The notes under the pieces: generated by a model
The model's database searches: none
What the model was told of the DNA's origin: nothing
Seen by the model: the letters and a program-made list of their open reading frames with translations, nothing else
Shown here: piece by piece, positions 5,845 through 57,478 of the stretch
How positions within the stretch are numbered: position 1 is the stretch's first letter
Layout of the letters: each line of letters starts with the position of its first letter
Made by a program: the position numbers and the translations under genes
Source of the DNA: a virus
Taxonomy: Duplodnaviria > Caudoviricetes
Length of the DNA stretch: 64,000 bases
Reading direction: 5' to 3' (one strand)
Virus record (IMG/VR): IMGVR_UViG_2814123113_000001
Span: 31,666 to 95,665 of that record

Positions 5845-6249
5845 CTAGTCCTCCATCCCCATGCGTTGGCGGCTCGCAGCCGCTTGAGCCGCGCCCTGTT
5901 CGATCAGAAAGTCGGTGAAAGCCTTCGCGTCGGCGGCCAGGCCTGCGGCGAACGCCGTTCGGGTGCTTGCGCCCCCATCGACCCAGAGGCGCGCCCGCTC
6001 CAGAAACGACTTGGCCCAACGGGCGCGGATGTCACCGCGCTCGACCGGGAAGTTGTCACCCGTCAGGCCGCGCAGGCTGTTGGCGAAGTCGTAGGGCGTC
6101 TCGGAAGGCGCATCGAAGGCCTTGAGCGCGTACTCGAACATCGTGATCCACGCTCGCCGATCAGGCGAACGGCGTTCGGGCGTACGCGGCGCCGAGCGAC
6201 GCGGCAGGCCGCTCACATAGCCAGAAGAGCGCGAGGGATAGCGGCTCAT
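5845..6249 (-). CDS. hypothetical phage protein containing two dispersed palindromes
   Basis: ATGA overlap with the upstream gene. Confidence 0.6.
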   Translation of the reverse strand: MSRYPSRSSGYVSGLPRRSAPRTPERRSPDRRAWITMFEYALKAFDAPSETPYDFANSLRGLTGDNFPVERGDIRARWAKSFLERARLWVDGGASTRTAFAAGLAADAKAFTDFLIEQGAAQAAASRQRMGMED

Positions 6250-6701
6250 TCTTTGCCCCCGCCGCTGACCAGCTTTTGCGCAGCGCTCTTGAAGGCGTCG
6301 GCAGCCTCGAGCGCCTCGCGCGCAGCGACTTCACGCGCCAGCCGATCGCCTCCACGCTCAAGAGCATCGAACATCGCGTTGACGGCCTCGTTGCCCTCTC
6401 GGACAGCCGCCTTCATGCTGGCCGCAACTTCGGCGGCGCCGGCCGAGGCCATAGACGCGCGCTCCAGGCGCATGGCGTAAGCGGCTAGCATCGGCGGGTC
6501 TCCGCCACCGGCCGCGATGAACGCGGCATCCAGGCGAACAGCGTCCTCGATCGTCGGCAGGGCGCCAGTATCCGGATCGGACCAGTTGCGCACGGTCCGC
6601 TCGGCCTTTCCGACCGCTTCGGCCGCGACGGGATAGGTGAGAAAGCCGCCGATCGTGGCGACGGCGTCCTGAAAGCTCGCGGGGACGCGACGCTTGGTCA
6701 T
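6246..6701 (-). CDS. CII-like regulatory protein
   Basis: HTH-like AAEAVGKAERTVRNWSDPD; located downstream of cro. Confidence 0.6.
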   Translation of the reverse strand: MTKRRVPASFQDAVATIGGFLTYPVAAEAVGKAERTVRNWSDPDTGALPTIEDAVRLDAAFIAAGGGDPPMLAAYAMRLERASMASAGAAEVAASMKAAVREGNEAVNAMFDALERGGDRLAREVAAREALEAADAFKSAAQKLVSGGGKE

Positions 6702-6898
6702 GCCCAGCTCCGAATGTTGAGGAAGGGGATCGCGCCGCTGGCGAGGCGGATGCCAGCGGCGCGCGCGACGACGGGCAGAAGGTGGGGACCCGTCACGCGA
6801 TGGCGGGGTCGGCGTTGCAAAGCAGCAAGCCGACCGCAAACGACGTGCCCGTCCGGCGCGGCTACAAGCCTGATGGCGCCTACAACCGGAGGGACAAG

Positions 6899-7138
6899 AT
6901 GAATGACCTGACGATCATCAAGGGCCAGATCGAAGCCCTTGCCCACGCCAGCGCAATCCTGTTGGGCGCTCGCATCCGACACCTGACGCCTGGCGAAGCC
7001 GCCACGGCCTGCCGTGTGTTCGCGACCCCGCTGACCGATCCGACACCAGCCGACGATCCGGCCCGGCGCGGCGTCATGCTGGACACGCTGGGCGACATCG
7101 CCGAGCGCGCCCTGATGTTGAGCAGGCCCGTCGGATGA
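6899..7138 (+). CDS. small counter-oriented hypothetical protein
   Basis: GGAGGG RBS before ATG; helical 79-aa ORF. Confidence 0.55.
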   Translation: MNDLTIIKGQIEALAHASAILLGARIRHLTPGEAATACRVFATPLTDPTPADDPARRGVMLDTLGDIAERALMLSRPVG

Positions 7139-7265
7139 CCCAGCGGAAATACAGCGCGAGCGAGTTTGCCACCCACCCGTCAACTCTGGTTCGACGGCAA
7201 TGTGTCGCGGCGTCGCACCATGCAAATTAACGCCCAATTCCACGGCCACGCTGTATGCGGTGGCC

Positions 7266-7481
7266 ATGATCGACGAACCGACTACACGACCGTCCGACGA
7301 GTTTCGCGCCTTGACGATCCTGGCCTTGGCGCTTGCCGAAACTCTTGGCCAGCAAGGCCAGGGCGAGAAGTTCCTGGTGAACCTGATGCGCGTGATCGAA
7401 GACCAGCGCCCGACCGCATCAGCCGACGATCGCGCCATCACCTGGGCAGACAAGCTCGCCACGGAGTTGCTGGTCAGGTAG
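7266..7481 (+). CDS. small counter-oriented hypothetical protein
   Basis: ORF with plausible codon usage. Confidence 0.45.
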   Translation: MIDEPTTRPSDEFRALTILALALAETLGQQGQGEKFLVNLMRVIEDQRPTASADDRAITWADKLATELLVR

Positions 7482-7902
7482 CTCGCGACTTGACCGCGAA
7501 CGCCGGGTATGTAGCATTCGCAACCGCCGGGGGTGTGTATGCCGCGTACGCGTTTCGATGTAGCGAAGATCTGCGACCCGACGCCGGTCGGGACAAGATC
7601 GATGGCGGTAAAGGCCAACTTGGAGGCATCGATCTCGCCCGCGAACGACCCCGTCGACTTCACGAGCGCATACATGGTGCTTGTCGACAGACTGCTCAGC
7701 GACGTAGCCGACAGCGACGCCAGCGAGTGCGCCCGCATCGTTCGAGCCATCACGCGCCGCTCGATCAAAGAAACACCGAAAGGGCGCGCGACGCTGCGAC
7801 GCGCGCCGCATTTGGCGACCGCCGAGGCGGTGTCCAGGCGCGTCTTGAAGGCGCGCTGCGAAGCGTGCCCTCGGATCTGCCAGTCTCCACTGAGATAGGA
7901 CA

Positions 7903-8091
7903 TCAATCCCTCTCAGCCGGAAGCCATGCGCTTGGCGGGATGCCCAGCTCGCGCTCAATCCGAACCGCCAGCTCAAGCGAAGGCGTTCTAGCCCCGCTCA
8001 CGAGCTGAGAAACGTAGCCCTTCGAAATGCCCAGCGACCTCAGCTTCTCGCCAAGATCCTCGCTCGACCGGGTGAGGTTTGCGGTTTCCAT
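7903..8091 (-). CDS. cro: Cro-like XRE HTH regulator
   Basis: LGISKGYVSQLVSGARTPSLELAVRIE; divergent from the repressor. Confidence 0.8.
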   Translation of the reverse strand: METANLTRSSEDLGEKLRSLGISKGYVSQLVSGARTPSLELAVRIERELGIPPSAWLPAERD

Positions 8092-8099
8092 GCCCAAGG

Positions 8100-8185
8100 G
8101 TTTGCATATTGCAAACTCTTTGGCAACCCGCTCGGTTTGCAGACTGCGTGACGACGCGGATGTGCCGTTACGTCAAACTGCGAAC
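8100..8185. promoter_or_regulatory. OR-like operator region of prophage 1
   Basis: GTTTGCATATTGCAAAC at 8100-8116 and GTTTGCAGACTGCGTGA at 8135-8151, between cro and cI. Confidence 0.75.
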
Positions 8186-8506
8186 ATGGAAAGCCCCGAC
8201 AAGCCCCTGCACCATCTTCGCGACTGGCGGAACTACAGAGGCCTTTCGCAAGAGGATCTGGCTGAGCAGATCGGGACGACCAAGTCTGTCATTAGCTTGC
8301 TTGAGACAGGCGAGCGGCAGCTATCGCCCAAGTGGCTTTTCAGGCTGGCTCCAGCCCTGAAAACGAAGCCGGGCGCGATTATCGATCACAACCCTTATGA
8401 ACTCCCCCGCGACGTCATCGACATCTGGCTGGAGATCGATGAGCAGCAGAGGCCTCAGGCCATGAAGGTGCTCGAAACCTTCCGCAAGGTCGCAAGCGGC
8501 AGCTAG
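8186..8506 (+). CDS. cI: CI-like XRE repressor without a peptidase domain
   Basis: LRDWRNYRGLSQEDLAEQIGTTKSVISLLETGERQLS. Confidence 0.8.
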   Translation: MESPDKPLHHLRDWRNYRGLSQEDLAEQIGTTKSVISLLETGERQLSPKWLFRLAPALKTKPGAIIDHNPYELPRDVIDIWLEIDEQQRPQAMKVLETFRKVASGS

Positions 8507-8508
8507 AC

Positions 8509-9291
8509 ATGCTCGGGTTTATCAAGGCGCTATTACGCGGCGAAGCGCATGACGCGCCGCCCCTGACGCCCCCGACCTTCTCAAGTCCGATCGTCCCACC
8601 GGAAGACAGTCCCGCAACTATCCAGCCCGCACCTGGTGATGAAGATCACCCACTTTTCGGTCGAGCCCTGATAATCGACTACATTGATGCTCAGGATGTG
8701 GCGAGTTTTCGCCGCATATCAGTGCGAAACTGCTACGCATCGGGAAACTATTCATATGTCGCTGCGCGATGCCTTGAGCGGCAAGCTCATCGCGTCTTTC
8801 GAATTGATCGGATTGATAGCGTAGCCTGTGGCGTTAGCGGCGAAGACCTCGGAGATCCCGAACGCTTCTTTGTTCCAGCTCCACCCGCGATCGGAAGCCG
8901 CGCCGGGCGCCTTGGTCGCAAACCGCTCCCACATCCAGAGTTGCGAGCTGCCATCAGAGCCTTGATCACGGTCGCAAGAGCCGACGGGTTCATTCACCCC
9001 AGCGAACGGCAAGTTATCCAGTCCTTCCTAAAGGTCGCCGGCGCATCACTTAGCGAAGCAGAGCGAGGCGAAATGCTGCAACGAGCCCTCGGCCTCAACG
9101 CCGATTGTGAAGCGTTCTATCGTAATTTGCGGATTATGTTTCAGGCGGGAGAGCCGCTTGCCAGCACAACGATTGCCGCCATGGGGGATCTCGCTCGAGC
9201 CGACGGCGAAGTGTCGGACGATGAGATGTTCCTCGTCAGCGAGATGATCCGAAAAGGCAAGGAGCACGACTACCGCATAACAATCGAGTAG
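8509..9291 (+). CDS. WYL-domain / TerB-like fusion protein
   Basis: IDYID...RRISV...CLERQAHRVFRIDRI (WYL); ARADG.IHPSE and ARADGEVSDDE (TerB); codon usage less GC-rich than neighbours. Confidence 0.7.
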   Translation: MLGFIKALLRGEAHDAPPLTPPTFSSPIVPPEDSPATIQPAPGDEDHPLFGRALIIDYIDAQDVASFRRISVRNCYASGNYSYVAARCLERQAHRVFRIDRIDSVACGVSGEDLGDPERFFVPAPPAIGSRAGRLGRKPLPHPELRAAIRALITVARADGFIHPSERQVIQSFLKVAGASLSEAERGEMLQRALGLNADCEAFYRNLRIMFQAGEPLASTTIAAMGDLARADGEVSDDEMFLVSEMIRKGKEHDYRITIE

Positions 9292-9311
9292 CGCTTTCCG
9301 CAAACCGTCAG

Positions 9312-9363
9312 GTTCGCAGACTGCAAACTTTTTGTTTGACGCCGACGTTTGCAATATGCAAAC
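9312..9363. promoter_or_regulatory. OL-like operators and early promoter of prophage 1
   Basis: GTTCGCAGACTGCAAAC at 9312-9328 and GTTTGCAATATGCAAAC at 9347-9363, with TTGACG between them. Confidence 0.75.
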
Positions 9364-9475
9364 GCTATGGTCACCCGCACCGGACGAGCGAGCACACGGG
9401 GTGTTCGTCTGGGACTGGAAGGGCGTTGAGAACCGATTTCGGTTCCCGATCGCTCCGGTGCGGTCTGAGGACCAT

Positions 9476-9757
9476 ATGGGAGAGAATGCAACGATCACCG
9501 GCGAGGCCCACGGCCTGGTGCTGGTGGTGGCCGACCGAGGCTTTGTCTGGGTCGGTGAAACGGTCACGACCCCGGACTGGGTCGAGATCAAGAACGCCCG
9601 CTGCGTGCGCCGCTGGGGCACGACCAAGGGCCTGAACCAACTAGCCATCGAGGGACCGCAATCGAGCACTCAGCTCGACGCTCCCGCCGACCTCAAGGTC
9701 AGCCGCAAAGCCCTCATCGCCATCATCCCGTGCGAGGCCGAGAAGTGGGCCGCATAG
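9476..9757 (+). CDS. DUF6948-like small phage protein
   Basis: VVADRGFVWVG...NARCVRRWGTTKGLNQLA.EGP; near-identical paralog at 54793-55062. Confidence 0.75.
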   Translation: MGENATITGEAHGLVLVVADRGFVWVGETVTTPDWVEIKNARCVRRWGTTKGLNQLAIEGPQSSTQLDAPADLKVSRKALIAIIPCEAEKWAA

Positions 9758-10107
9758 CGACCCTCGACGGCCAAGGCGCGGGCACCGCCCGCGCCGACGG
9801 CTACGGCTACGGCGACGGCGACGGCGACGGCTACGGCTACGGCGACGGCGACGGCGACGGCTACGGCTACGGCGACGGCGACGGCTACGGCGACGGCGAC
9901 GGCTACGGCTACGGCTACGGCTACGGCGACGGCGACGGCTACGGCTACGGCTACGGCTACGGCGACGGCGACGGCGACGGCGACGGCTACGGCTACGGCT
10001 ACGGCGACGGCGACGGCGACGGCTACGGCTACGGCGACGGCGACGGCGACGGCGACGGCTACGGCTACGGCTACGGCTACGGCTACGGCTACGGCTACGG
10101 CTGGTGA
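9745..10107 (+). CDS. Gly-Tyr/Gly-Asp repeat protein (GTG start)
   Basis: GAGG upstream of GTG; N-terminus and GW* ending conserved in the second copy. Confidence 0.65.
   Translation: MGRIATLDGQGAGTARADGYGYGDGDGDGYGYGDGDGDGYGYGDGDGYGDGDGYGYGYGYGDGDGYGYGYGYGDGDGDGDGYGYGYGDGDGDGYGYGDGDGDGDGYGYGYGYGYGYGYGW
9799..10098 (+). repeat. 50 tandem hexamers GGC(T/G)AC
   Basis: Read directly; 27 GGCTAC and 23 GGCGAC. Confidence 0.97.
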
Positions 10108-10110
10108 GCC

Positions 10111-10168
10111 GGAGGCCCGGCCAGGGCTCGGCGTAGCCCTACCGCCCTGGCCGGGCCTCCTCTTTTTC
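10111..10168 (+). terminator. 17-bp stem hairpin followed by TCTTTTT
   Basis: GGAGGCCCGGCCAGGGC / GCCCTGGCCGGGCCTCC; identical copy at 55308. Confidence 0.75.
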
Positions 10169-10218
10169 AAACCCTCAGAGAACACATCGCCCCGAGGGCG
10201 ATAGCGCCGAGGTCAATC

Positions 10219-10437
10219 ATGTCTATCCTACTGCAAGGAACGCCGTGGCCCGTGATCGCCGCGCACCTGACTGAGATCGGACTACTGGCGGCGATCTATC
10301 TGCGGGTCCGCATGATCCCGCGCCGCAACCTGCCCGTCATCGTCAACATCGACCCAGTCAGGGCCGGCGAGGCGGCGGCTAAGGAACACCAGATTTTGCG
10401 CCTGGCGCGGGAGATGAAGGGGCCGCGCCGTGCGTAG
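10219..10437 (+). CDS. small membrane protein
   Basis: GAGG RBS; hydrophobic N-terminus. Confidence 0.55.
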   Translation: MSILLQGTPWPVIAAHLTEIGLLAAIYLRVRMIPRRNLPVIVNIDPVRAGEAAAKEHQILRLAREMKGPRRA

Positions 10438-10846
10438 CCCCTTCGAGCAAGGCGACCAGCCAAGACCGTCGCTCAAGACCGAACGCTGTTCGGCTGAGGT
10501 CATCTCCCTCACCGAATGGGCGGCCTCCCGTCGCCGTAGCGAGCCACCGAGCTGGGATCAGCACGCGCTCGACTTGCAACCCTATCAGCGTGACGCCTTG
10601 GCGTGGCTGGAGCGCCAGGACGCGCTGAACGCCAACGACCTTTGGGCTGCGCAAGCCGCGACGGCCTATCTCGGCGACCGCATCGCCATGCCCGCCGCGG
10701 CGATCGAGGCCGCGTTCGACGCGAGGACCGGCCGCTTCGACCTTCCGGCCTATGTGGCCAACACCCTTGATGGCGCGCCGGCCGTCCTGCCACTGCCGCA
10801 ACCCCCTGTCGGCGTGATCACGCGCCTGCTGCGGAGGCTGCATTGA
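10430..10846 (+). CDS. hypothetical phage protein
   Basis: Coupled ORF in the early operon. Confidence 0.55.
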   Translation: MRSPFEQGDQPRPSLKTERCSAEVISLTEWAASRRRSEPPSWDQHALDLQPYQRDALAWLERQDALNANDLWAAQAATAYLGDRIAMPAAAIEAAFDARTGRFDLPAYVANTLDGAPAVLPLPQPPVGVITRLLRRLH

Positions 10847-11133
10847 TGGCCGACGACGCCCAAGCCATGGCCGAGACCGTGCGCTCTGCTTGCGCCCGCC
10901 GCATCCGCGATCTGCTGCAAAAGCGGGTCGGCGCCGGGCGCGAGGATCCTCGCCGCGCGCTGTCGGACCAAGCCAGCATCGCCAACGACTGGAAGGCCGA
11001 CAGCTTCGACCGCCTTCAGCTCGTGCTCGACATCGAAGAGACGTTCGACATCGGCATCAGCGACGAGGAGGCCGAGACGATCGACACGATCGACGCGGCC
11101 GTCACCCGCATCATGTCGGGGGCCTGGACGTGA
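10846..11133 (+). CDS. acyl carrier protein-like protein
   Basis: ADSFDRLQLVLDIEETFDIGISDEEAETIDTIDAAV resembles the ACP consensus ADSLD.VELVM.LEE.F..EI.DEEAEKI.TV. Confidence 0.8.
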   Translation: MADDAQAMAETVRSACARRIRDLLQKRVGAGREDPRRALSDQASIANDWKADSFDRLQLVLDIEETFDIGISDEEAETIDTIDAAVTRIMSGAWT

Positions 11134-11459
11134 ACATCACCGTGATCGTCCCGGAAAAGCGCGACGTGCTGTTCCACCTGACGCCCTTCGCCAAGGGCTG
11201 CGCCAGCGCGGCGGCCAGCGACCGCAAGCGCCGATACCTGGTCACCAGCCGCCGCCCCGGTCAGGCCATTCACGCCCTGCTGACGCGACTAGGGCGCTCG
11301 CCCGACGACGTCGAGATCACGCCCTGCGGCGCGACCGAAACCGCGATCCACCCGATCGGCAACCCCTTTGAGCCCTACGCCTTCGTCTGGGAGGGCCTGA
11401 CCTTCGACGAAGTGGCCACCGCCCTCTCCAACCTTAAAGCCGTAAGGACTGCTCGATGA
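11130..11459 (+). CDS. hypothetical phage protein
   Basis: GTGA overlap with the upstream stop codon. Confidence 0.55.
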   Translation: MNITVIVPEKRDVLFHLTPFAKGCASAAASDRKRRYLVTSRRPGQAIHALLTRLGRSPDDVEITPCGATETAIHPIGNPFEPYAFVWEGLTFDEVATALSNLKAVRTAR

Positions 11460-11647
11460 CGCGCTGGCGCGAAGGCGACGCCGCGCGCGTCGTCGACCTG
11501 ACCGATCTGAAGATGCCCGGCAAGGGACGGCCACCCTTCGCCAAGGACGACATCGTCCGGGTTCGGCGCGTCTCGCCCGACGGCAAGCGTCTGGTTCTGG
11601 ACACACACCCGGGCTGGTTTTCCGCCCATCGCTTCAAGCCGCTCTAG
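11456..11647 (+). CDS. small hypothetical protein
   Basis: AGGA RBS; ATGA overlap. Confidence 0.55.
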   Translation: MTRWREGDAARVVDLTDLKMPGKGRPPFAKDDIVRVRRVSPDGKRLVLDTHPGWFSAHRFKPL

Positions 11648-11655
11648 GAGCACCC

Positions 11656-13896
11656 ATGTCAGCCTTGACCGTCATGGCGTTGGAAAACGCCGACATTCTG
11701 CGCGCCCTTAGGTCATCGAAATTCGAGACCGTCAGCGATCTTGCGCGCACCCTCGAACGCGACCCCAGCAATCTGCGTCGCAGCCTGACACGGATGGCCG
11801 ATGACGGCTTGCTGGCGGTGGCCAATCTGTCGCCGCTGGACGCCAGCCTGACGCTGTCGGCTCAGGCCGCCCTTGAGGCGCTGGACCGTGCCGACGGCGC
11901 CGAGGTCGCCACGACGCCCGCCGGTTATGTCGCCCTGCGTCACGACCAGATCTTGCCCGATCCGGAAAACGCCCGCACCAGCTCGGGCCTGTCGACGTCG
12001 TCCATCTTCGAGATGGCCGACAGCCTCGCCGACCAGGGCATGCTGCAATCGCCCGCCGTACGCCCTGCGGCCGACGGCGCGGGATATGTGCTGGTCATGG
12101 GCGAACGCCGCTGGCGTGGTTGGGGCCTGTTGATCGAACAGGGCCGGTGGACAGCGGACAAGACGATCCTCTGCCGCCTCGACGATGGCGACGATCTGGC
12201 GCGGCTTGAGGCCGGTCTGGTCGAGAACCTCCAACGATCCGACCTGAACAATCTGGAAGCCGCCGAAGGCTTCCTGACGCTGTCGATCCGCCACAAGCGC
12301 ACCGCGCAGCAGATTGCCAAGACGGTCGGCTGGAACGAGCGGACGGTGCAGATCGCGCTCAAGGTCGCCAAGGAAGCCACCGACGCCGACAAGCAGAAGT
12401 ACCTCGAAAGCGAGGCCGCCTATGCGCTCGCCAAGGAAACCGGCGAGGCGGGCGTCAAGCGCACCTTCACCTGGGAAGACCTTCGCGAGACCGTGAAGAC
12501 GCCCAAATGGCGCCAGGTGCTGGACAAGCGCAGCCGCGTCTCGCTGCTCGTCATGGAACTGGCCTTCAAGCAGCTCAGCGACTGTGACGGCCCCGATGGG
12601 CTGACGCGCATCTCGGTTCCGCCCGGCGGCGGCTTCTGGTCCGAGGCCGAGGATCTTGGCCTGGTCAAGGACATGCGCGTCGATCAGGCCGTGTTCGCAG
12701 GCGTGACCGACCGCGCCCGGGAATGGCTGGCCGACAACCAGTTCGACGCCGACCCCGGCGCGGCGCTCAAGACGCTGCGCATCGACGCCCTGGGCTCAAT
12801 GGGCGAGCGGCTGGCGTCGGACGCGGGCCGCTACGCCACCGACTTCATCAACCCGCCCAAGCCGCAACCGCCAGCGCCCGAACCCAGCCCGGAGCCGCCA
12901 ACTCAGGCCTCCGACGATCGCCGCGACAGCTTCACCCGGCAGGTTCTCGCGGTCGCCGGTGATGACGCTGGAGATAGCCACGAGACCGCGCCGACGATCG
13001 ACGCGGCCGCAATGGCTTATGGCGCGGCCATTGAAGAGCACGGGGCCTCTTCGCCCGAGGCCGTCGCAGGCCTGGAGGATCTGCGAGCCGCACGCGCCGC
13101 AAACAACGCGCCCTCCGCTCAAGACCCCAGCGCCCTCTACGCAGCCCTCGGCGGCAAGGTAGCCGCTCCAGCCAGCGAGGCGACGAGCGCCGTTCGCGAC
13201 GAGGCGAACAATCCGGGCAACCTGGAGGACGACGAGTTTCTGGCCATCGCAGAGATCGCCCACAAGACCACGTTCGACGGCGTTGATACGCGCGGCGGCG
13301 CGATCCGTGGGTGCCGCGTCTTCTCGTTTCACACCGGCCCGGGCGCGGAACTGGCCAGCCGCCTCCAGCACAAGCGCATGCTGGGCTTTGGCCAGGCCGC
13401 CAGCGGATCGGGCTTTATCGCCTATCTGACGCAGGACGCCTGGAACCTGATCGGCGAGGTTGACGACGAACGCCTCGAGGGCATGCGGCACGAGACGCTC
13501 GACACCGGCGACCTGACCGCGTTCGAGGCCTCGGGCGCCAAGTACGTGACGCCCTGGCTGGTCGATCCGGTGAAGACTGAGGAACCGGCGGCGCCCGACG
13601 CCGCAGACTCTGACGACGGCTCACCCTTCGCCGAAGACGAGGACGACGACGGCGAGGAAATGGACCATCATTGGTTCGACGCCGCCGCGCACCTGGGCGG
13701 CCGATGGGACTACCTGCTCGCCCTCCAGATGACCGCGCCGGCCCCGGCCGGGCTGGACGCCCCGTTCTACATCTCCGCCAAGAGCGAGGGCGAGGGCATG
13801 GTCGTCGGCGAAACCCTCGCCGGATCGGGACGCTTCAGCGACGTCAGGCTCTACCGCCGTAGCGGCAAGCTGCTGCTGCATTGGGGCGTCGCATGA
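11656..13896 (+). CDS. ParB/KorB-like protein with extra N-terminal HTH and long C-terminal extension
   Basis: PENAR, GMLQSPAVRP, GERRWRG, LVENLQRSDLN, central HTH TAQQIAKTVGWNERTVQ; N-terminal HTH VSDLARTLERDPSNLRRSL. Confidence 0.85.
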   Translation: MSALTVMALENADILRALRSSKFETVSDLARTLERDPSNLRRSLTRMADDGLLAVANLSPLDASLTLSAQAALEALDRADGAEVATTPAGYVALRHDQILPDPENARTSSGLSTSSIFEMADSLADQGMLQSPAVRPAADGAGYVLVMGERRWRGWGLLIEQGRWTADKTILCRLDDGDDLARLEAGLVENLQRSDLNNLEAAEGFLTLSIRHKRTAQQIAKTVGWNERTVQIALKVAKEATDADKQKYLESEAAYALAKETGEAGVKRTFTWEDLRETVKTPKWRQVLDKRSRVSLLVMELAFKQLSDCDGPDGLTRISVPPGGGFWSEAEDLGLVKDMRVDQAVFAGVTDRAREWLADNQFDADPGAALKTLRIDALGSMGERLASDAGRYATDFINPPKPQPPAPEPSPEPPTQASDDRRDSFTRQVLAVAGDDAGDSHETAPTIDAAAMAYGAAIEEHGASSPEAVAGLEDLRAARAANNAPSAQDPSALYAALGGKVAAPASEATSAVRDEANNPGNLEDDEFLAIAEIAHKTTFDGVDTRGGAIRGCRVFSFHTGPGAELASRLQHKRMLGFGQAASGSGFIAYLTQDAWNLIGEVDDERLEGMRHETLDTGDLTAFEASGAKYVTPWLVDPVKTEEPAAPDAADSDDGSPFAEDEDDDGEEMDHHWFDAAAHLGGRWDYLLALQMTAPAPAGLDAPFYISAKSEGEGMVVGETLAGSGRFSDVRLYRRSGKLLLHWGVA

Positions 13897-14297
13897 CCGC
13901 CGCCGAGCTGATGGCCCGCGCCATCGCCGAAGCGGTTTGGAATCGCGTCGACGCCATGAAGCGCGGGACCTTGGGGCCTCGCCAGATGTTGAGCTGGGAA
14001 ACGGCGGGCGAACAAGCTCGGGCCAACTGGACGGCGATCGGCGAGCATGCGCTCGCCGAGATCCGCGCGGCGCGGCTCAGCGATGACAGCGTCATTCGGA
14101 TGAGCCTCGCGCAATCGATCTTCGGGTTGATGCGCAAGGCGATGCTGGCCAGCCCGGCGGGACTTCCTCGTTACGCGGCCACCACGTGGTCGGACGCCCA
14201 TCCCGACGAGCGCGCCGACTACTTTGCGATCGCCGGCGCGGCGATGCAGACGGTGCGCGCCGCCAAGGCGCAAGCCCAGCAGGCGAGGGCGGCATGA
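13893..14297 (+). CDS. hypothetical phage protein
   Basis: ATGA overlap. Confidence 0.6.
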   Translation: MTAAELMARAIAEAVWNRVDAMKRGTLGPRQMLSWETAGEQARANWTAIGEHALAEIRAARLSDDSVIRMSLAQSIFGLMRKAMLASPAGLPRYAATTWSDAHPDERADYFAIAGAAMQTVRAAKAQAQQARAA

Positions 14298-14533
14298 CCC
14301 AACGCCCGCTAACCCTGGCCGACGTCATCGCCTACCACGTCGCCGAGGCCGAGAACTACACCGCCAAGGCCACAGGCTGGGCACGCTCGGCCGAGCTGCT
14401 CAAGACCGGCCACAGCGTCACGAACGCCGTTCGTATCGACCGGTTTGACGCCGCCGCCCAGCTCGCCGCCGACATCGCCGCGAAGCACGGCGAGATGGCC
14501 GACCTTCTCGAAACTCAGAGCACCCGGTCATGA
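14294..14533 (+). CDS. hypothetical phage protein
   Basis: ATGA overlap; GAGG RBS. Confidence 0.6.
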   Translation: MTQRPLTLADVIAYHVAEAENYTAKATGWARSAELLKTGHSVTNAVRIDRFDAAAQLAADIAAKHGEMADLLETQSTRS

Positions 14534-14665
14534 AGCGTTGGCCTCGCCTGATCGGCTGGACCCTCGCCGCCGCCGCCTCAGCCGCCGCCATGGCACGCGC
14601 TCACCGCGCTCTTCCGAACTTTCTCCGGCCGCCAAGGCTGAACCTGAAAACCTTAGGAGACCTTG

Positions 14666-15487
14666 ATGCCCGACATCATGCTCGATCTGGAGACGCTCGG
14701 CACGACGCCGGGCTGCGTGATCCGATCCATCGGAGCCGTCGCTTTCGACCCGAACGGCGGACCGTTGGGCGAGAGCCTCTACCTGATCATCGACCGCACC
14801 TCTTGCGAGGCCGCCGGCTTGACGGTCGATCCCGAGACCGAGGCCTGGTGGGCGGAGCAAACGCCCGAGGCGCGCGCCGAGTTCGACGGGCAAGGCGTTG
14901 CGTTGGCCGAGGCGCTGGACGCCTTTGAACTGTTCTACACGACCCTCGCGCCGATCGCCGACAAGGCCGACCGCCTGTGGAGCAACGGCCCCAGTTTCGA
15001 CGAGGCCATCCTGGCCGCCGCCTATCGGTCGCTCGGCCGCAAGCCGCCGTGGCGCTATAACGCCGCCCGAGACTGCCGCACGATCTACGATCTCGCCGGC
15101 CTTAAGCTCCAGCACACCGGCGGCACTTTTCACAAGGCGATCGACGACGCCATTGAGCAGGCGAAGCTGGTTCAGGAGGCGCGGCGCCTGCTCATCGCGG
15201 CGGGTCCGCCGGCGTGGCGCACCGAGGTCAATACCTTTGCGAACCTCATGGAACAGCAGCTCCGCGCGAACGACCACAAGGGCGGATGGAAGGGCGATAC
15301 CAGTGACGCTCTTTACCAGCGTCTGCTGGAAGAGGCCGAGGAGCTGTCTCAAGCTCTAGCATGGCGCTCAGCTCTGTTCGGCGATGCAGACCCCGAGAGA
15401 ATTGGCCGCGAGGCCGCCGACGTCGCCAACTTCGCCATGATGATCGCCGACGTGCGCGGCGCGCTGGGGACGGAGGCGCGGCCGTGA
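14666..15487 (+). CDS. DEDD 3'-5' exonuclease fused to MazG-like nucleotide pyrophosphatase domain
   Basis: IMLDLETLG, WSNGPSFD, HKAIDDA; C-terminal LLEEAEEL...EAADVANFAMMI. Confidence 0.8.
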   Translation: MPDIMLDLETLGTTPGCVIRSIGAVAFDPNGGPLGESLYLIIDRTSCEAAGLTVDPETEAWWAEQTPEARAEFDGQGVALAEALDAFELFYTTLAPIADKADRLWSNGPSFDEAILAAAYRSLGRKPPWRYNAARDCRTIYDLAGLKLQHTGGTFHKAIDDAIEQAKLVQEARRLLIAAGPPAWRTEVNTFANLMEQQLRANDHKGGWKGDTSDALYQRLLEEAEELSQALAWRSALFGDADPERIGREAADVANFAMMIADVRGALGTEARP

Positions 15488-16047
15488 AGGATTTCACCCC
15501 CACCAAGGAAACCATCAGCCTTCACGGGCTAGGGTTCATCCAGCTCATCCTGGGCGGGAACCAACGGCTGCACGTCTGGCATCCGGATCTACCACGCCGC
15601 GATTGCTATGAGCACTCAGCGATCCACAATCACCGCTTCGGCTTCGTATCACGCGTCCTGAAGGGCACTCAGGTCAATCAGCGCGTCGACCTGGAGATTG
15701 TGAAGCCGGAGACAGGCTCGCACGTCCTGATCAGCCACAACGGCCCGCGTAGCGACAAGGGCGGGCGGCTTAGCTACCCGGTCGCCGACGTCAACGTCAG
15801 CCCCCGCGCGCCCGAGTTCTACGAGGCGGGCGCCGAGTACGTCATGCCGCCCATGGAATACCACCAAACGCCATGCGAAGGCGTTGTGGTCACGCTCATG
15901 CAGAAGACCGTGGAGACGTCGTTACACGCTAACAGCGTCTGCCGTCGCGGTGTCGATTTCCACTACGACTTCGACCGCTTCCAGCTCTCGCCGAGCGAGC
16001 TTTTCGCCTACGTGGTCGACGCGCTGGGATCGGAGGTGCGCCCGTGA
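15484..16047 (+). CDS. His-rich cupin-like phage protein
   Basis: RLHVWHP, IHNHRF, EYHQT. Confidence 0.55.
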   Translation: MKDFTPTKETISLHGLGFIQLILGGNQRLHVWHPDLPRRDCYEHSAIHNHRFGFVSRVLKGTQVNQRVDLEIVKPETGSHVLISHNGPRSDKGGRLSYPVADVNVSPRAPEFYEAGAEYVMPPMEYHQTPCEGVVVTLMQKTVETSLHANSVCRRGVDFHYDFDRFQLSPSELFAYVVDALGSEVRP

Positions 16048-16298
16048 CCCCGAAGCCGCAGCCGCCGAACGACAAGCACGAGGCCCTGTATCAGGAACTC
16101 GTCGCCGTCATGCGCAAGTACGAGCTTTCGCAGGTAGAGATCCTTGCGGTCGTCGCCAACATCACCGGCAAGTGCTTGGCCTTTCAGGACCAGACCAAGG
16201 GCACGGCCGACGACTACATGCAGATCGTCATCGCCAACCTTGAAGAAGGCAATCGCCAGGCACTCGACGGACTGCTCAACCCGATCGGGAGGGCGTGA
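16044..16298 (+). CDS. hypothetical phage protein
   Basis: GGAGG RBS; GTGA overlap. Confidence 0.6.
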   Translation: MTPKPQPPNDKHEALYQELVAVMRKYELSQVEILAVVANITGKCLAFQDQTKGTADDYMQIVIANLEEGNRQALDGLLNPIGRA

Positions 16299-17215
16299 TG
16301 AGCAAAAAGTACGCTCACGACCTAGCGAGGATCGACGAAGCCCTCTCGCCGCATGTCTGCAAAGCTCGCAACGCCCGCGCCTTTGACTTCCGCACCCCAG
16401 GCAAGGGCGGAACCTACGCTTTCAGTCTGACCTGGACCCCGGGTTCGCTATCCCTGGCCGGCGACTGCGGCGAGCTGACCATGACGCACTACTCGGCGCT
16501 TTGGACGCTCGAGGAAGGGCTTCGTTGGGCGGCTACCAGCGACATCCACTACTTGCTCGGCAAGACGCGCCTTAAAGAGACTTTCGACCGCGACGCCACC
16601 ATCCGCGACATTATCAAGATGGCCAACGAGGGCGCGGTAGACTCGCGCAAGCGCCTGCGGGATGAGCTGCGTGGGTGGCGGCGAGAGCGGCCCGACCCCT
16701 ACGGCTGGTATGATCCCGCGACAGAGTTTGACTACGTCGACTGGCTGAACGATCGACCGACTCAAAACTCCGTCTGGACGACCTATGTGCGGGCGCAATC
16801 TCGGTACGAGTACAAGGACCAGGAAGAGCGCGTCGTGGTCGCCGATGGGTGGGAGCTGTGGAACGACATCCGTCGGGGCTTGGGAGAACGGGATGTCGCC
16901 TGCATTCACACGTCCAAGGGTCTAGAACATCTGACCGAGCTGCTGCAAAACGAGATAGAGACAGAGCATCATGCCTACGAATTTTGCTACGGCAAACTCG
17001 GCTGGGATGACTATCACCCCTGCTACGCGTGGCGCTTTCACGACCTGCTCCAGGTCGAGTGCATTCGGCGCGGCGCGAAGATGGCTCTTGAGCAGTTGGA
17101 CGCCGACCCGCCCTTCATCCCTTACGCTTGGCGCCCCGCCCTAGCCGACGATATGGCCGCGTTCCCCCGTGCCTTCGGTGAACGCTACAGCTCCGTACTA
17201 GCGAGGGCAGCATGA
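16295..17215 (+). CDS. hypothetical phage protein
   Basis: Long coupled ORF. Confidence 0.65.
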   Translation: MMSKKYAHDLARIDEALSPHVCKARNARAFDFRTPGKGGTYAFSLTWTPGSLSLAGDCGELTMTHYSALWTLEEGLRWAATSDIHYLLGKTRLKETFDRDATIRDIIKMANEGAVDSRKRLRDELRGWRRERPDPYGWYDPATEFDYVDWLNDRPTQNSVWTTYVRAQSRYEYKDQEERVVVADGWELWNDIRRGLGERDVACIHTSKGLEHLTELLQNEIETEHHAYEFCYGKLGWDDYHPCYAWRFHDLLQVECIRRGAKMALEQLDADPPFIPYAWRPALADDMAAFPRAFGERYSSVLARAA

Positions 17216-17282
17216 CCCGCGAAGCCCTTCTGGCGCGCATACGCGCACTCGCACACCGCCCCGCGCTGCCGAGCGACGGCAA

Positions 17283-17723
17283 ATGACACCTCAACCCCTA
17301 CCCACCGTCGCCTTGTCGATCCTTCAGCCGTGGGCCTGGCTCATCGTCAACGGCTACAAGGACATCGAGAACCGCACCTGGCGGACGCATCGGCGCGGGC
17401 CGATCCTGGTCCACACCGGCAAGGGCTTTGACAGCGATGCTCACCAGGACATGCTCCAGGGCGTCCACCCCTGCTACGACCTTGGCCATCTGAAGGCGGA
17501 CGTTCATGACGCCTACCGCCTCGCTTGGGAAGCCGGCGAAATCCATCGCGGCGGAATAGTCGGCGGATGCAGGATCACCGGCTGCGTCACGGATCACCCG
17601 AGCTGGTGGTTCGCAGGCCCGTTCGGTTTCACACTCGCCGATCAGATGCCCCTGCCGTTCATGCCCCTCAGCGGCGCGCGCGGGTTCTTCCCGGCGACCT
17701 ACATTCCACCGGCGAACTGCTAA
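17283..17723 (+). CDS. ASCH-domain protein
   Basis: ALSILQPWAWLIVNGYKDIENRTW. Confidence 0.85.
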   Translation: MTPQPLPTVALSILQPWAWLIVNGYKDIENRTWRTHRRGPILVHTGKGFDSDAHQDMLQGVHPCYDLGHLKADVHDAYRLAWEAGEIHRGGIVGGCRITGCVTDHPSWWFAGPFGFTLADQMPLPFMPLSGARGFFPATYIPPANC

Positions 17724-17875
17724 TGGCCGCCGCGCGCCAGCACCAGGACCCTCAGCGCACGCCGCAAGGCGCAGCGCTCGACCCTGCGTTGGTGCGCCTA
17801 ATCGAAGCCCTTGCCCAGGCCGATGCAGATCGCGACTATGCCGCCGCTCAGCAGCGCAGGGAGACCCAAGGATGA
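17723..17875 (+). CDS. conserved ~50-aa protein (candidate RDF)
   Basis: LDPALVRLIEALAQADADRDY; homolog at 61933-62082. Confidence 0.6.
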   Translation: MAAARQHQDPQRTPQGAALDPALVRLIEALAQADADRDYAAAQQRRETQG

Positions 17876-18126
17876 GCGGTGGCAGCGCAGACATTCGGGT
17901 CAGCGACATCGTATCGCGCTGCGGCGACGACAGGCTGCGCGTGGTCGGCACAAACGGCAGCGACAGCCTACCCCCCGACCTTGTCGAAACCGTCTGCATC
18001 GACGCAGGCAAGGGCTGGGGCGGCTTCATCGTGGGCAGGAAGGATTTCCTTTGCGCCGACGACGTCGAGCTGATCGAACGGCCCGCCCGCGATCCCGAGG
18101 CAATCGCACTTCCCGCGCACACCTAG
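17872..18126 (+). CDS. hypothetical phage protein
   Basis: ATGA overlap. Confidence 0.5.
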   Translation: MSGGSADIRVSDIVSRCGDDRLRVVGTNGSDSLPPDLVETVCIDAGKGWGGFIVGRKDFLCADDVELIERPARDPEAIALPAHT

Positions 18127-18130
18127 CTCA

Positions 18131-19777
18131 ATGACCATGCGCGTTGCGATCTACGCCCGATATTCCGATGACAAGCAAAACCCCGGCTCGATCGCTGACC
18201 AGCTCGCGCTCTGCCGTCGTCATGCGCGGGCGCGCGGCTGGACGATCATCAACGAATACACCGACGCGGCGATCTCGGCCGATCTGCTGGTCACCCGGCC
18301 GGGCGCTCAGGCCCTGCTACGCGCGGCCGAGACCGGAGCCTTCGACCTGATCCTGGTCGAGCACCAGGACCGCCTGTTCCGGAACCTCGCCGAGAACGCG
18401 ACCGCCTTCAAACGCCTGACCTATTTTGGCGTCGGCATCGCGACCCTGGCCAAGGATCGCCTCCAGTTGATGGACATCGCGATCGAAGGCCTGATGTCCG
18501 AGCTGTACCTTCAGAACCTTTCGGACAAGACCAAGCGCGGCATGCACTCGAACGGCGAGAAGGGCCTTTCGATGGGCGGCCGCGTCTATGGCTACCGCTC
18601 CACGCCCGGCGGCGAGATGACGATTGTCGAGGATGAGGCGGCGATCGTACGAACGGCGTTCGGGCTCTACAACGAGGGCTGGAGCTGCCGCGACATCGCC
18701 GACCACTTCAATAAGGGCGACACACCCGGCCCGACGGGAGGCCTCTGGAACGCCTCGGCTTTCAGCGGATCGCGGCAGCGCGGGAACGGCATCCTGCGGT
18801 GCGAGCTGTATGTCGGCGTCAAGGTCTGGAACCGGTTCGATAAGAGCAAGGACCCCGACACTGGTAAGCGCGTGCAGACGATCAAGCCCGAGGGCGAGTG
18901 GAAACGAACGCCGGTTCCGCAGCTCCGGATCATCGACGACGCGACCTGGTCTACCGCCCAAGAACGGCTGGCCATCACGTCGGAGACCAAGCCCAGCACC
19001 CTGGCCAATCAGGCTAAGCCCGGCGTCTTCACCGGGCTGCTCAAGTGCGGCGCCTGCGGTGAGAACTACATCGTCGCGGGCCGCGCCCGGCTGCAATGCA
19101 GCACGATCCGGAACAAGGGCCGCCACGCGTGCGCCAATGGCCGCACGGTCGGCCGGGCCGCAGTCGAAGACCGCATCCTGACCGGCCTGAAAGATCGCCT
19201 GCTTAGCCCCGAGGCCGCCGCGATCTATGTCCGCGCCTATCACGAGCGCTGGAAGGCCAACGCCGGCGATCGGCGAGCCCGCCGCGCGCCGCTTGAACGT
19301 CGCCTCGCCGAGACCCAGCGCAGGATCGACCGCGCGCTGAACGCCATCCTCGACGGCTACGCCAGCGCCGACCTAAAAACGCGCCTGCAGAGTCTAGAGG
19401 ATGAGCGCGACGCCCTTAAGCACGAGCTGGCCAGCATCGGCGACGACGATCCGATCACGCTGCATCCCGGCCTCGCCGACGTCTATGCGCAGCGGATCAG
19501 CGACCTTCAGGAGAGGCTCGCGGCGTACACCAAGGGCAAGCCCTCGCCCAAGGACCGCCAAGCCATCGCGGCCGCCCGCGCCCTAGTCGATCGCATCGAA
19601 ATCATGCCGACGTCTCACGCGCGCGGCGCGCACGTCGAGATCACCCTGTTCGGGGACCTCGCGCGCTTCCTACGTCCTGACCTCAACGAGGCTCAATGTA
19701 TGAGCCTGCTGGTGGCGGGGGCGGTGTGCAAATCGGAACCCACTTCTGTTCTGGGTCTGGTCCGCGTGGCGGTTTAG
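18131..19777 (+). CDS. int: large serine integrase
   Basis: VAIYARYS, DRLFR, YGYR, recombinase domain, zinc ribbon CGACG...C. Confidence 0.95.
   Translation: MTMRVAIYARYSDDKQNPGSIADQLALCRRHARARGWTIINEYTDAAISADLLVTRPGAQALLRAAETGAFDLILVEHQDRLFRNLAENATAFKRLTYFGVGIATLAKDRLQLMDIAIEGLMSELYLQNLSDKTKRGMHSNGEKGLSMGGRVYGYRSTPGGEMTIVEDEAAIVRTAFGLYNEGWSCRDIADHFNKGDTPGPTGGLWNASAFSGSRQRGNGILRCELYVGVKVWNRFDKSKDPDTGKRVQTIKPEGEWKRTPVPQLRIIDDATWSTAQERLAITSETKPSTLANQAKPGVFTGLLKCGACGENYIVAGRARLQCSTIRNKGRHACANGRTVGRAAVEDRILTGLKDRLLSPEAAAIYVRAYHERWKANAGDRRARRAPLERRLAETQRRIDRALNAILDGYASADLKTRLQSLEDERDALKHELASIGDDDPITLHPGLADVYAQRISDLQERLAAYTKGKPSPKDRQAIAAARALVDRIEIMPTSHARGAHVEITLFGDLARFLRPDLNEAQCMSLLVAGAVCKSEPTSVLGLVRVAV
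19710..19745. other. att junction between prophages 1 and 2
   Basis: TGGTGGCGGGGG (tRNA-3'-end-like) followed by AATCGGAACCCACTT, the exact inverse of 63943-63957. Confidence 0.85.
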
Positions 19778-21443: not shown

Positions 21444-21460
21444 TGCGAACGCCGTTCGCA
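21444..21460. promoter_or_regulatory. dispersed palindrome TGCGAACGSCGTTCGCA, first of 9 copies in prophage 2
   Basis: Other copies start at 26646, 30881, 35462, 40754, 45310, 50044, 57436 and 58412 (the last has C in place of the first T). Confidence 0.85.
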
Positions 21461-26593: not shown

Positions 26594-26670
26594 CAGGGGC
26601 TCCAGGCATAGGGGGTCGCGCGAGCGCCTGCGGGCGTCGCGGTGATGCGAACGGCGTTCGCATGGTTGGG

Positions 26671-30548: not shown

Positions 30549-30943
30549 CAGCCCGCGCTCCACGCCAGAACCATGGCGGATCTCGGCAAGCGCTCTTGTC
30601 CGCGCTCGCCGGGCCCCACCAGGGTGTCACCTTCAACGATGGCCAGCTGCAGCCGGCCTTCCAGATCCCGCCAGCCGGCGACATCGCCGCGCTGGGCATG
30701 CCCAGGGGCGACCGGCGTCAAGACGGCGCCCACCGCCGCCTCCAGGCCGCCCAGGCTGGCGATCAGCCGGGTCGCCTCCGCAGCCGATCGCCATTGGCCG
30801 CGATAGACCGCCAAGGGATCCTCGCCCGTCAGCGCCTGGACCGCGCCCGCCGCGAAGGTGACGCAGTCGTGCTCTCCCCATGCGAACGGCGTTCGCATGT
30901 GCGACGCCACAAACAAGTGCAGCGCCTCGTAATCGCGGACCAT
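30548..30943 (-). CDS. NlpC/P60-like tail protein (DUF6950-like)
   Basis: PFAWGEHDCVTFAA...AQRGDV. Confidence 0.8.
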   Translation of the reverse strand: MVRDYEALHLFVASHMRTPFAWGEHDCVTFAAGAVQALTGEDPLAVYRGQWRSAAEATRLIASLGGLEAAVGAVLTPVAPGHAQRGDVAGWRDLEGRLQLAIVEGDTLVGPGERGQERLPRSAMVLAWSAG

Positions 30944-35441: not shown

Positions 35442-35491
35442 GGAGGCTCCTGGGCGACCGATGCGAACGGCGTTCGCATCGGCGCGCGGGG

Positions 35492-43007: not shown

Positions 43008-43010
43008 GGC

Positions 43011-43229
43011 CTAGCTCCGATCGAAGGCGACGGCCGAAAAGCCGAACGAAGATGAATTCCCCAACCCGGAGGCGCTCGCGGCGAGCCCCTCAAAGTAGCG
43101 GATGCGCTTCTCGATATCGGCGAAGGACTGATAGGTGACCCGCTCGCCATTGGTCTCGATCGTGAGCTCGCTGTTGGCGAGACCCGACCTAAGCGCGGAG
43201 ATTTCGGCGGCGTAGTCGGGTGCCGGCAT
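43011..43229 (-). CDS. gpW-like head-tail joining protein
   Basis: Small gene between terminase and portal; GERVTY. Confidence 0.75.
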   Translation of the reverse strand: MPAPDYAAEISALRSGLANSELTIETNGERVTYQSFADIEKRIRYFEGLAASASGLGNSSSFGFSAVAFDRS

Positions 43230-50030: not shown

Positions 50031-50242
50031 GCGAAGTCCTCGATGCGAACGCCGTTCGCACGGCGCACGATGAAGTTTCGGGCGTCTTCCGCCGCCTCGA
50101 CCAAACCCAGGCGCGCTATCCGCCGCGCGGCCTCCTGGTCAGCCTGGTAGGCGAGGGTCGCCCACGTTGCCCCATGGCGCTCGGAGTCCAGCACGCGGCT
50201 CAGGACGTAGCGCTCGCGGTCCGTCAGGTCCTCGCGCGTCAT
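50027..50242 (-). CDS. hypothetical protein
   Basis: ATGA overlaps at both ends. Confidence 0.6.
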   Translation of the reverse strand: MTREDLTDRERYVLSRVLDSERHGATWATLAYQADQEAARRIARLGLVEAAEDARNFIVRRANGVRIEDFA

Positions 50243-54586: not shown

Positions 54587-54673
54587 GCCTACGCCCTCGT
54601 TTGTTTCTTCACGCGTTGCGCGCATCTGACCAGTCGCGCGCCTTAAGGAACAGCGATCGTTCCGTTTCATTAA

Positions 54674-57121: not shown

Positions 57122-57478
57122 ATGATCGAGTCCACTCCTGAGTCCAGGCCGCCCCGCCTGTCCAGCGCCGCCGTCGACCGCATCGCGCAATGCCTGTCGG
57201 CGATCGAGGCCGCGCCTGCCGCCCAGCACAGCGTCGCCCTGTGCGTGATTGATCGCATCGCCGAGCCGCGCGCCGTGGTCGGCGTCATCGCCGGCGGCCG
57301 CCGCTTTGTGCTCGAGGCGGCCGAGGCCGACATGGCCGCCCGCGTCCTGGTGGATGACCGCCCGATCGCCGGCGCGCGGCTCATCGCCAACCATCTGCTG
57401 TTCCGCCTGGGCCAGGCCGAGCTGCTGCGCTTCCGTGCGAACGCCGTTCGCATGCTCACGCCGATGGGGCGCGGCTGA
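57122..57478 (+). CDS. hypothetical phage protein
   Basis: ORF in the early operon. Confidence 0.55.
   Translation: MIESTPESRPPRLSSAAVDRIAQCLSAIEAAPAAQHSVALCVIDRIAEPRAVVGVIAGGRRFVLEAAEADMAARVLVDDRPIAGARLIANHLLFRLGQAELLRFRANAVRMLTPMGRG

Follow-up and report, generated by a model that had tools for sequence, protein, structure and literature searches.

What reads a short palindrome that recurs along the genomes of two neighbouring prophages, and what might its copies do there? The question arises from a virus record (Caudoviricetes; IMGVR_UViG_2814123113_000001) of 95,665 bases. We analysed bases 31666-95665 of this record, a stretch of 64,000 nucleotides referred to here as the window, together with the rest of the 95.7-kb contig and with related phages. 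The palindromes are a real, phage-specific and family-wide feature. Each of the two prophages also encodes a ParB-like protein. We lean towards reading the palindromes as dispersed loading sites of an orphan ParB-type CTPase clamp, with the ParB-like protein as the putative binder.

Palindromes on two tandem prophages

Pfam and PHROG scans of the 112 open reading frames (ORFs) on the contig show two lambda-like siphophage prophages in tandem. Close homologues of the ParB-like proteins carry Caulobacter species names, and a 4.1-Mb Caulobacter genome (G189) contains the same prophage pair, 46,356 bases apart. In window coordinates, the two elements are laid out as follows.

Contig start to 19777: prophage 1, with its structural genes on the minus strand, left of the window
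6276-19777, rightward: early operon of prophage 1, ending in a large serine recombinase
18131..19777, plus strand: serine recombinase (integrase) 1, at the right end of prophage 1
About 20000-64000: prophage 2, ending in a second serine recombinase and cut by the contig end
62378..64000, plus strand: serine recombinase (large) of prophage 2, truncated where the contig ends

The contig has 21 copies of the 13-bp core, CGAACGSCGTTCG, of which 13 fall in the window, where 100 dinucleotide shuffles give a mean of 0.02. Prophage 1 (taken as 51 kb for site density) has 12 exact copies with free flanks, and prophage 2 (44 kb) has nine, eight of them flanked by TG..CA. Shuffling synonymous codons in the called genes (300 shuffles) leaves a mean of 1.39 copies and a maximum of 4 in prophage 1, and a mean of 3.12 and a maximum of 5 in prophage 2. 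The two kinds of shuffle rule out an origin of the palindromes by chance or codon usage. The original prediction, made from the window's letters, had asked for counts above those of a matched shuffle and for further sites in the structural region of prophage 1. The counts do exceed the shuffles, and the structural genes left of the window hold eight additional exact copies, hence the prediction stands on this point. The sites and near-sites in the window are listed below.

Prophage 1
5949..5961: exact 13-bp core, flanks GG/GG, kept in the relative G231
6166..6178: exact 13-bp core, flanks GG/GG, 217 bases from the 5949 site
14421..14433: exact core between flanks CA/TA, 525 bases beyond the 3' end of the ParB-like gene
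18650..18662: exact core, flanks TA/GG, within serine integrase 1 (codons V-R-T-A-F-G)
3280..3292: one-mismatch copy CGAACGGCGATCG, an exact site at the orthologous position of G231
10480..10492: one-mismatch copy CGAACGCTGTTCG, an exact site at the orthologous position of G231
13184..13196: one-mismatch copy CGAGCGCCGTTCG, within the prophage 1 ParB-like gene
Prophage 2 (TG..CA flanks in all but the last)
21446..21458: intergenic
26648..26660: intergenic
30883..30895: near the 5' end of a DUF6950 gene
35464..35476: intergenic
40756..40768: within the protease-capsid gene
45312..45324: at the 5' end of the large terminase gene
50046..50058: just upstream of a primase-like gene
57438..57450: 567 bases upstream of the ParB-like start
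58414..58426: CG..CA flanks, within its own ParB-like gene (codons A-N-G-V-R)

The four exact copies of CGAACG(C/G)CGTTCG at 5949, 6166, 14421 and 18650 had been placed correctly, as had the one-mismatch copies at 3280 and 10480, and the copy at 13184 had been overlooked. The flanks of the four in-window prophage 1 sites are never TG..CA, as had been noted. A scan for promoters and terminators around 5949 and 6166 found none. The capsid gene that holds the 40756 site (39465-41489) is a protease-capsid fusion (Peptidase_S78 and Phage_capsid_4).

Homologous genes of the two prophages bear their sites at different places. Integrases 1 and 2 are 58% identical, and the site in V-R-T-A-F-G of the first is missing from V-R-R-I-F-A of the second, just as first reported. 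In the terminase genes of prophage 1 the site is close to the 3' end, in those of prophage 2 close to the 5' end. G231, the ParB-like protein of which is 97% identical to that of prophage 1, is exact at both positions (3280 and 10480) where prophage 1 has one-mismatch copies. Since homologues bear sites at different places and relatives gain or lose sites by single changes, the sites arise independently, and the proposal that they do so by point change is borne out.

Copies in complete genomes are concentrated in the prophages.

G189: 22 genome copies, 21 within the tandem prophages, a density 958-fold over that outside
G231 (relative of prophage 1): 16 genome copies, 14 in a single 49-kb stretch (one prophage)
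G150 (relative of prophage 2): 9 genome copies, 8 on the prophage contig
G081 and G028: 0 copies in each genome, a ParB-like homologue in each
G001: 3 genome copies, none near its ParB-like homologue

The motif is a property of the phages and not of the host. Binding by a host factor was considered and ruled out; the host chromosome is without the motif, and different site classes coexist in single genomes.

The ParB-like proteins

Each prophage encodes one ParB-like protein.

11656..13896, plus strand: ParB-like gene of prophage 1 (ParB1), 746 amino acids
58011..59639, plus strand: ParB-like gene of prophage 2 (ParB2), 542 amino acids, starting at M255 of the long ORF 57249-59639

That prophage 1 has a ParB-like protein of its own had been proposed and is the case; the two proteins are 25% identical. 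ParB1 begins with a winged helix (residues 1-80) and a ParB N domain (91-192), followed by a helix-turn-helix (HTH; 199-262); two more winged-helix-like modules and a small domain at the C-terminus complete it. Both proteins match Pfam ParB_N and contain the family's nucleotide-binding boxes GxxRxxA and ENxxR, here in the forms GERRxR and ENxQR: GERRWRG and VENLQRSDL in ParB1 and GERRVRA and VENSQRENL in ParB2. Across the N domain and the HTH, both match Caulobacter ParB (6T1F), Thermus Spo0J (1VZ0), Myxococcus ParB with CDP, and Noc, with 7BNK and 7OL9 among the sequence or fold matches. The AlphaFold model of ParB1 (mean pLDDT 75) has helices at 199-262, and Foldseek matches it to the KorB chains 8QA9 and 8QA8 and to ParB-parS and Noc-NBS complexes. 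Both proteins have an N domain of the ParB/Spo0J/Noc/KorB family, with the HTH directly after it. Judged from these sequence features, the ParB-like protein is predicted to bind CTP and to slide. The N-terminal winged helix is dispensable for an array, because seven array phages encode a ParB-like protein without that domain.

The 796-aa ORF at 57249-59639 is a run-on; homologues and the alignment with ParB1 begin at M255 (window 58011). The upstream part overlaps two separate genes in another frame, 57122-57478 and 57481-58014, with high third-position GC.

The ParB-like genes appear to be orphans. No ParA-type Pfam match, as a ParABS partition system would require, was found among the 112 contig ORFs, and both prophages end in serine integrases. 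No conserved neighbour or partner gene lies beside the ParB-like gene in the 40 phages compared below. Scans of viral contigs with single proteins gave no match for ParB1 and one locus for ParB2. A generic ParB-box search of genome contigs returned mostly chromosomal ParBs, L013 being the one useful locus. Among cultured phages, tblastn revealed no close relative, and its top matches were to generic ParB domains. An Aphanizomenon record was set aside as a relative, being ParAB plasmid-like.

A family of site classes among related phages

The comparison covers 40 regions. Among them are 20 stretches of about 60 kb from Caulobacteraceae genomes, each surrounding a ParB-like homologue, as well as 17 viral records and the prophage of G231. 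The regions were chosen through ParB, and each was scanned de novo for palindromes. They are partly redundant: G303 and G297_C1b appear to be one prophage, as do G331 and G171_C60, and G231 is close to prophage 1 (97% identity in ParB). At least four exact copies of one 6-N-6 palindrome are present in 34 of the 40, consistent with the family-wide system that had been proposed, and relatives have 3 to 15 exact sites per phage. If hybrid sites are counted, arrays are also present in G307 (11 sites), G327 (6) and G101_C38 (4). Two short regions have 3 copies in 31 kb (G100_C83) and 1 copy in 13 kb (G190_C9). There are at least six site classes, each one base change away from CGAACG and mirrored on both arms. 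Copies in the 1.96 Mb searched are as follows.

Class A, half-site CGAACG: 170 copies
Class B, half-site CGAGCG: 41 copies
Class C, half-site CGAACC: 48 copies
Class D, half-site CGCACG: 26 copies
Class E, half-site CAAACG: 4 copies
Class F, half-site TGAACG: 9 copies
Eight same-shape control palindromes: 9 copies altogether

Essentially one class is used per phage, and flank use across phages is core only, G..C or TG..CA. Some arrays are mixed. The array of G307 has eight A/D hybrids and three A/A sites (n = 11), that of G321 has five D/D, three A/D and one A/A (n = 9), and three class B phages have three A/B hybrids each. The hybrid arrays of G307 (L217-L219) and G321 (L240-L242) resemble intermediates of a specificity switch. 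In prophage 1 itself, the copy at 13184 joins a class B half to a class A half. One exact class B palindrome, CGAGCGCCGCTCG, stands alone in an apparently non-coding gap (G000:C1 29667-29679), 1998 bases to the left of where the window begins; the other 12 prophage 1 sites are class A.

The site within the prophage 2 ParB-like gene has counterparts. ANGVR codons carry a site in six class A ParB-like genes, with a rare GTT valine codon. In the class B phage G251 the codons read A-S-G-A-R, and two mirrored non-synonymous changes convert the class A site to class B. The position of these codons (window 58413-58430) is shared with G319, G309, G297_C1b, G024_C13, G332, G171_C60 and G251_C13.

Three other genomes with two ParB-like prophages carry differing classes (G297 with A and D, G081 with B and C, G150 with A and C). 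Two prophages with the same core are seen only in the genome of this window, the four two-prophage cases being too few to test. Tight clusters of a different palindrome, GTGACA-N4-TGTCAC or GTCACC/GGTGAC, with three to four copies packed into about 100 bases, are a separate feature from the arrays. They are located in G028_C3 (about 25205-25290), G326 (14954-15100) and G277_C2 (42957-43050) and look like classical operator clusters.

Spacing and placement

A series at 6166, 10480, 14421 and 18650 with a step of about 4 kb had been described, and the gaps of 4314, 3941 and 4229 bases bear this out. A significant period in prophage 1 as a whole was not found, however. Gaps between its 12 exact sites range from 217 to 10,245 bases with a coefficient of variation (CV) of 0.68, against 0.89 at random (p = 0.15), and the result is unaffected when the three one-mismatch copies are included (p = 0.16). 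Spacing in prophage 2 is regular (CV 0.36, p = 0.004). Among the 30 phages with at least five sites, the gap CV falls under the random expectation in 29 (mean z -1.36), and the mean gap per phage is 3.2-9 kb, mostly 3.5-5 kb.

Placement relative to genes departs from expectation towards gene boundaries (269 sites, chi-square p = 1e-20). Intergenic sites number 72 against 33 expected, sites in the first 90 bases of a gene 45 against 25, sites in the last 60 bases 28 against 16, and gene-interior sites 124 against 195. In 31 of 33 phages a site falls within the span that runs from 1.5 kb upstream of the ParB-like gene to 0.7 kb downstream of it, against 21 expected.

Association of the arrays with the ParB-like gene

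A ParB-like protein is the only protein family common to the array phages. An HMM of the family matches in all 40 regions. In BLAST clustering the family is present in 39 of 40, followed by the large terminase with 27. A reverse test was run from the motif because the first region set had been chosen through ParB. The prophage 2 17-mer matched 42 stretches in viral contigs, and 32 records were searched whole. An array is present in 17 of the 18 records with a ParB-like match and in none of the 14 without (Fisher p = 3e-8). All ten records with at least six core copies have a ParB-like match, and the 14 records without one never hold more than two copies of one class. Four of these 14 are 6-40 kb fragments with two copies 4.6-10 kb apart, which may be pieces of array phages.

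Site type also follows the ParB phylogeny. On the ParB tree, the core class requires 11 changes, against a mean of 16.8 and a minimum of 13 in 1000 label shuffles, and the flank type requires 8, against a mean of 14.3 and a minimum of 10. With the same taxa, flank type takes six changes on the ParB tree versus ten on the terminase tree, and six versus nine on the portal tree. Class C and class F each form one clade. The bare core is found throughout the ParB clade of prophage 1, and TG..CA throughout that of prophage 2, whether class A or class B. The claim that prophage 1 has its own site variant is thereby supported: a 13-bp core without flank preference stands against a 17-19-bp form in prophage 2, and the flank difference is common to each ParB clade.

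We suggest that a dimeric, phage-encoded protein would recognise the palindrome sequence-specifically, most likely the orphan ParB-like CTPase, which the association described above makes the predicted binder. Each palindrome would be a parS-like loading site bound through the HTH domain. Once bound, the protein might close into a nucleotide-dependent clamp and slide for a few kilobases. With one site per 3.5-5 kb, such clamps could cover the entire phage genome, much as KorB does from the operators of RK2 and Noc from its sites on the Bacillus chromosome. Coating of this kind might serve genome-wide control of transcription, or compaction and self-marking of replicating phage DNA. The prophage 1 protein would read the 13-bp core alone, and the prophage 2 protein would read the TG..CA flanks too; protein 1 could therefore bind both prophages, and protein 2 only its own. 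As the 13-bp and 17-19-bp forms share their core, one-way cross-binding is a concrete prediction, and the two prophages could cross-talk.

Several observations weigh against this reading. The original prediction had suggested a look at co-variation of DNA-binding residues with flank bases; no column of the winged-helix or HTH alignment co-varies with site class in four sister-group contrasts. The tree of a primase-like family needs four class changes, versus seven for the ParB tree (25 shared taxa). The class B ParBs of G001 and G081 nest within a class A clade, and in G332 and G171, which are class B phages, the ParB-like gene retains a class A 17-mer. G314, a 46.8-kb record with the ParB-like gene, has no array, whether of the 6-N-6 form or of the other shapes searched for (arms of 5 bases, gaps of 0-8, 11-mers that repeat; the same search of G101_C38 gave its 4 sites, hybrids included). 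The spacing of prophage 1 taken alone is not significantly even. The p-values overstate independence, since the regions behind the family-sharing and tree tests were chosen via ParB and many of the phages are related. Sites spread along the whole backbone would let any gene that tracks the backbone fit class well, and A-to-B switches may pass through tolerant intermediates.

Alternative readers of the sites

The alternative that survives best, though we regard it as unlikely, is that another phage DNA-binding protein occupies the sites, for example an immunity repressor that silences the prophage in the manner of stoperators, while the ParB-like gene merely co-travels. The failure to find a specificity residue in the ParB-like protein is in its favour, and small HTH proteins diverge too fast for BLAST clustering to reveal a universal one. 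Classes differ in the three other two-prophage genomes (G297, G081 and G150), as heteroimmunity requires, and a repressor would suit the preference for gene boundaries (72 intergenic sites). The candidate repressor genes are not where such a mechanism would place them, however.

53472-54281: CI-like gene of prophage 2
8027-8506: HTH gene of prophage 1

The CI-like gene has no adjoining site, the nearest being 50046 and 57438, and the exact site nearest to the HTH gene is 6166. A shared core would also make the two prophages of the window homoimmune, and no other protein family is universal in the 40 regions. Stoperators are moreover asymmetric and oriented with transcription (available part of PMC4351075), unlike the palindromes studied here.

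Considerably less probable is a role in replication, with the sites as dispersed priming or initiation signals for the primase and helicase module of the phage.

48837-50030: primase-like gene of prophage 2

The site at 50046 is directly upstream of this gene. As noted, its tree fits class best, and within the prophage 2 group it cleanly sets phages of class A apart from those of class B. The family is present in only 26 of 40 regions, though, and absent from prophage 1 and its clade despite the same core, and the good fit may only reflect a gene tracking the phage backbone where the sites sit. The origin-binding proteins known so far rely on iterons in clusters, not on single palindromes at even distances.

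We give little credence to the idea that a phage DNA methyltransferase, or some other modification enzyme, acts on the palindromes, even with two methyltransferases in prophage 1 and one in prophage 2.

759-3296: methyltransferase of prophage 1
3846-5351: methyltransferase of prophage 1
50239-51081: methyltransferase of prophage 2

The family of the prophage 2 enzyme is present in only 18 of 40 regions. Usual methylase sites are far shorter than 13-19 bp, and a modification target is not expected to be enriched and evenly spaced.

Least credible of all are nucleic-acid hairpins (terminators, RNA processing or packaging signals) in place of protein sites: the 17-bp form could give a 7-bp stem with a 3-base loop and many sites lie at gene boundaries, but no T-run follows the sites, gene interiors hold 124 of 269, same-shape control palindromes are absent, and all copies within a phage are identical in sequence, without compensatory variants, which argues that they are read by a protein rather than as a fold.

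Three further observations concern genes of prophage 1. An acyl-carrier-protein-like gene (window 10843-11133) lies in the early operon, and a gene for a NusG-like protein (G000:C1 28405-29019) lies upstream of the terminase genes. A GC-rich palindrome, GGCCGC-N4-GCGGCC, occurs three times with a 147-base period in a 1031-aa tail gene (G000:C1 6972-7280); these copies probably reflect a tandem repeat within the coding sequence of a tail fibre-like protein.

Wider implications

Orphan ParB-fold genes are common on prophages, and in the available part of a 2025 survey (PMC12704722) they are listed as uncharacterised. With the arrays, one such family gains a candidate DNA target and a testable action in Caulobacter, a non-pathogenic model genus. 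The at least six natural site specificities with apparent intermediates provide a series for studies of ParB-site co-evolution, and orthogonal ParB/site pairs are tools for labelling DNA loci. More speculatively, there is some chance that temperate phages of Caulobacteraceae (perhaps also Cluster O mycobacteriophages) carry a private genome barcode, evenly spaced and read only by their own orphan ParB-CTPase. The protein would coat, compact or compartmentalise the replicating DNA of its own phage and distinguish it from host DNA and from that of co-resident phages. Specificity would evolve by single symmetric changes through relaxed intermediates such as the hybrid arrays of G307 and G321. Co-resident phages would be driven to different codes, and the pair in the window would be partway there, with a shared core but different flanks.

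Comparison with known systems

The arrays can be compared with several described systems. The closest likeness is to KorB and its OB operators on the IncP plasmid RK2. The OB operator has a 13-bp form with a central G/C, and RK2 has 12 sites. KorB likewise combines a ParB N domain with an HTH and is matched by the ParB1 model (8QA9, 8QA8). In both cases many copies of a short palindrome are dispersed over a mobile element, about one per 5 kb, with 12 and 9 exact sites on the 51 and 44 kb here. KorB is a CTP-dependent sliding clamp of the ParB family that acts as a long-range repressor by sliding (available part of PMC11790492). Unlike RK2, the element here is an integrated temperate phage and not a plasmid, without ParA (IncC) or a conserved KorA-like partner gene. 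The proteins have extra winged-helix modules, and site specificity is split into at least six classes. As regards a KorA-like partner and promoter operators, no neighbour is conserved, sites are enriched at gene boundaries, and the promoter scan near 5949 and 6166 came back empty.

Noc with its NBS sites and chromosomal ParB with parS have the same fold (7OL9, 6T1F, 1VZ0) and palindromic sites, those of Noc being scattered over the replicon. They differ from the phage systems, which lack ParA, are not known to target the membrane and have sites confined to a 45-50-kb phage genome. Caulobacter parS is unrelated in sequence to these palindromes. BisD of ICEclc is likewise a ParB-like clamp of the orphan kind, belongs to an integrated mobile element and has an extra domain that ParB lacks. 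It is described as a CTP clamp that activates promoters at a distance and spreads over about 50 kb of ICEclc (available part of PMC12409273). BisD loads at two bisS sites, versus 9-15 here, and has the partner BisC, versus no conserved partner. According to the accessible part of a 2026 paper, another phage ParB activates a thymine dioxygenase; no such enzyme was found by Pfam among the 112 contig ORFs.

Among phages, Cluster A mycobacteriophages have stoperators, a 13-bp site repeated tens of times along a temperate genome and present also at the early promoter that the repressor controls. In the available part of PMC4351075 stoperators are asymmetric sites that follow the direction of transcription, and the immunity repressor binds them. 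The sites here are perfect palindromes instead, with none within 1.8 kb of the CI-like or HTH gene. Cluster O mycobacteriophages (Corndog) offer a second parallel, with one invariant palindrome of 13-17 bp in many copies and a ParB-fold protein encoded by the same phage. According to the available part of PMC4351075, the invariant 17-bp palindrome TGTTCGGNNNCCGAACA occurs 34 times, in genic and intergenic positions, its function is unknown and a dimeric binder is predicted. We reproduced the count of 34 in the 69.8-kb Corndog genome. In Corndog gp90 a ParB N domain, with the boxes GQRR and ENDQR, is followed by an HTH-like stretch. In an hhalign comparison with the Caulobacter-phage system the probability is 71% over 103 columns, and the likeness may be homologous or convergent. 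Of the repeat sites, 54273 is 151 bases below gene 90 (54424-55932; L266/L267) and 56293 is 361 bases above it. Cluster O differs in its host phylum, in being apparently lytic and in its denser and uneven sites (mean gap 2 kb, CV 1.06). A link between the repeat and gp90, which its authors did not draw, is a lead from one phage cluster and a possible explanation for the unexplained 17-bp repeat.

Our literature search found no paper that ties a phage ParB-like protein to genome-wide palindromes, and the supplements of the 2025 survey (PMC12704722) may list the family. Taken with its ParB-like gene, the palindrome array resembles the multi-site systems of KorB or Noc, in a phage form that has not previously been described.

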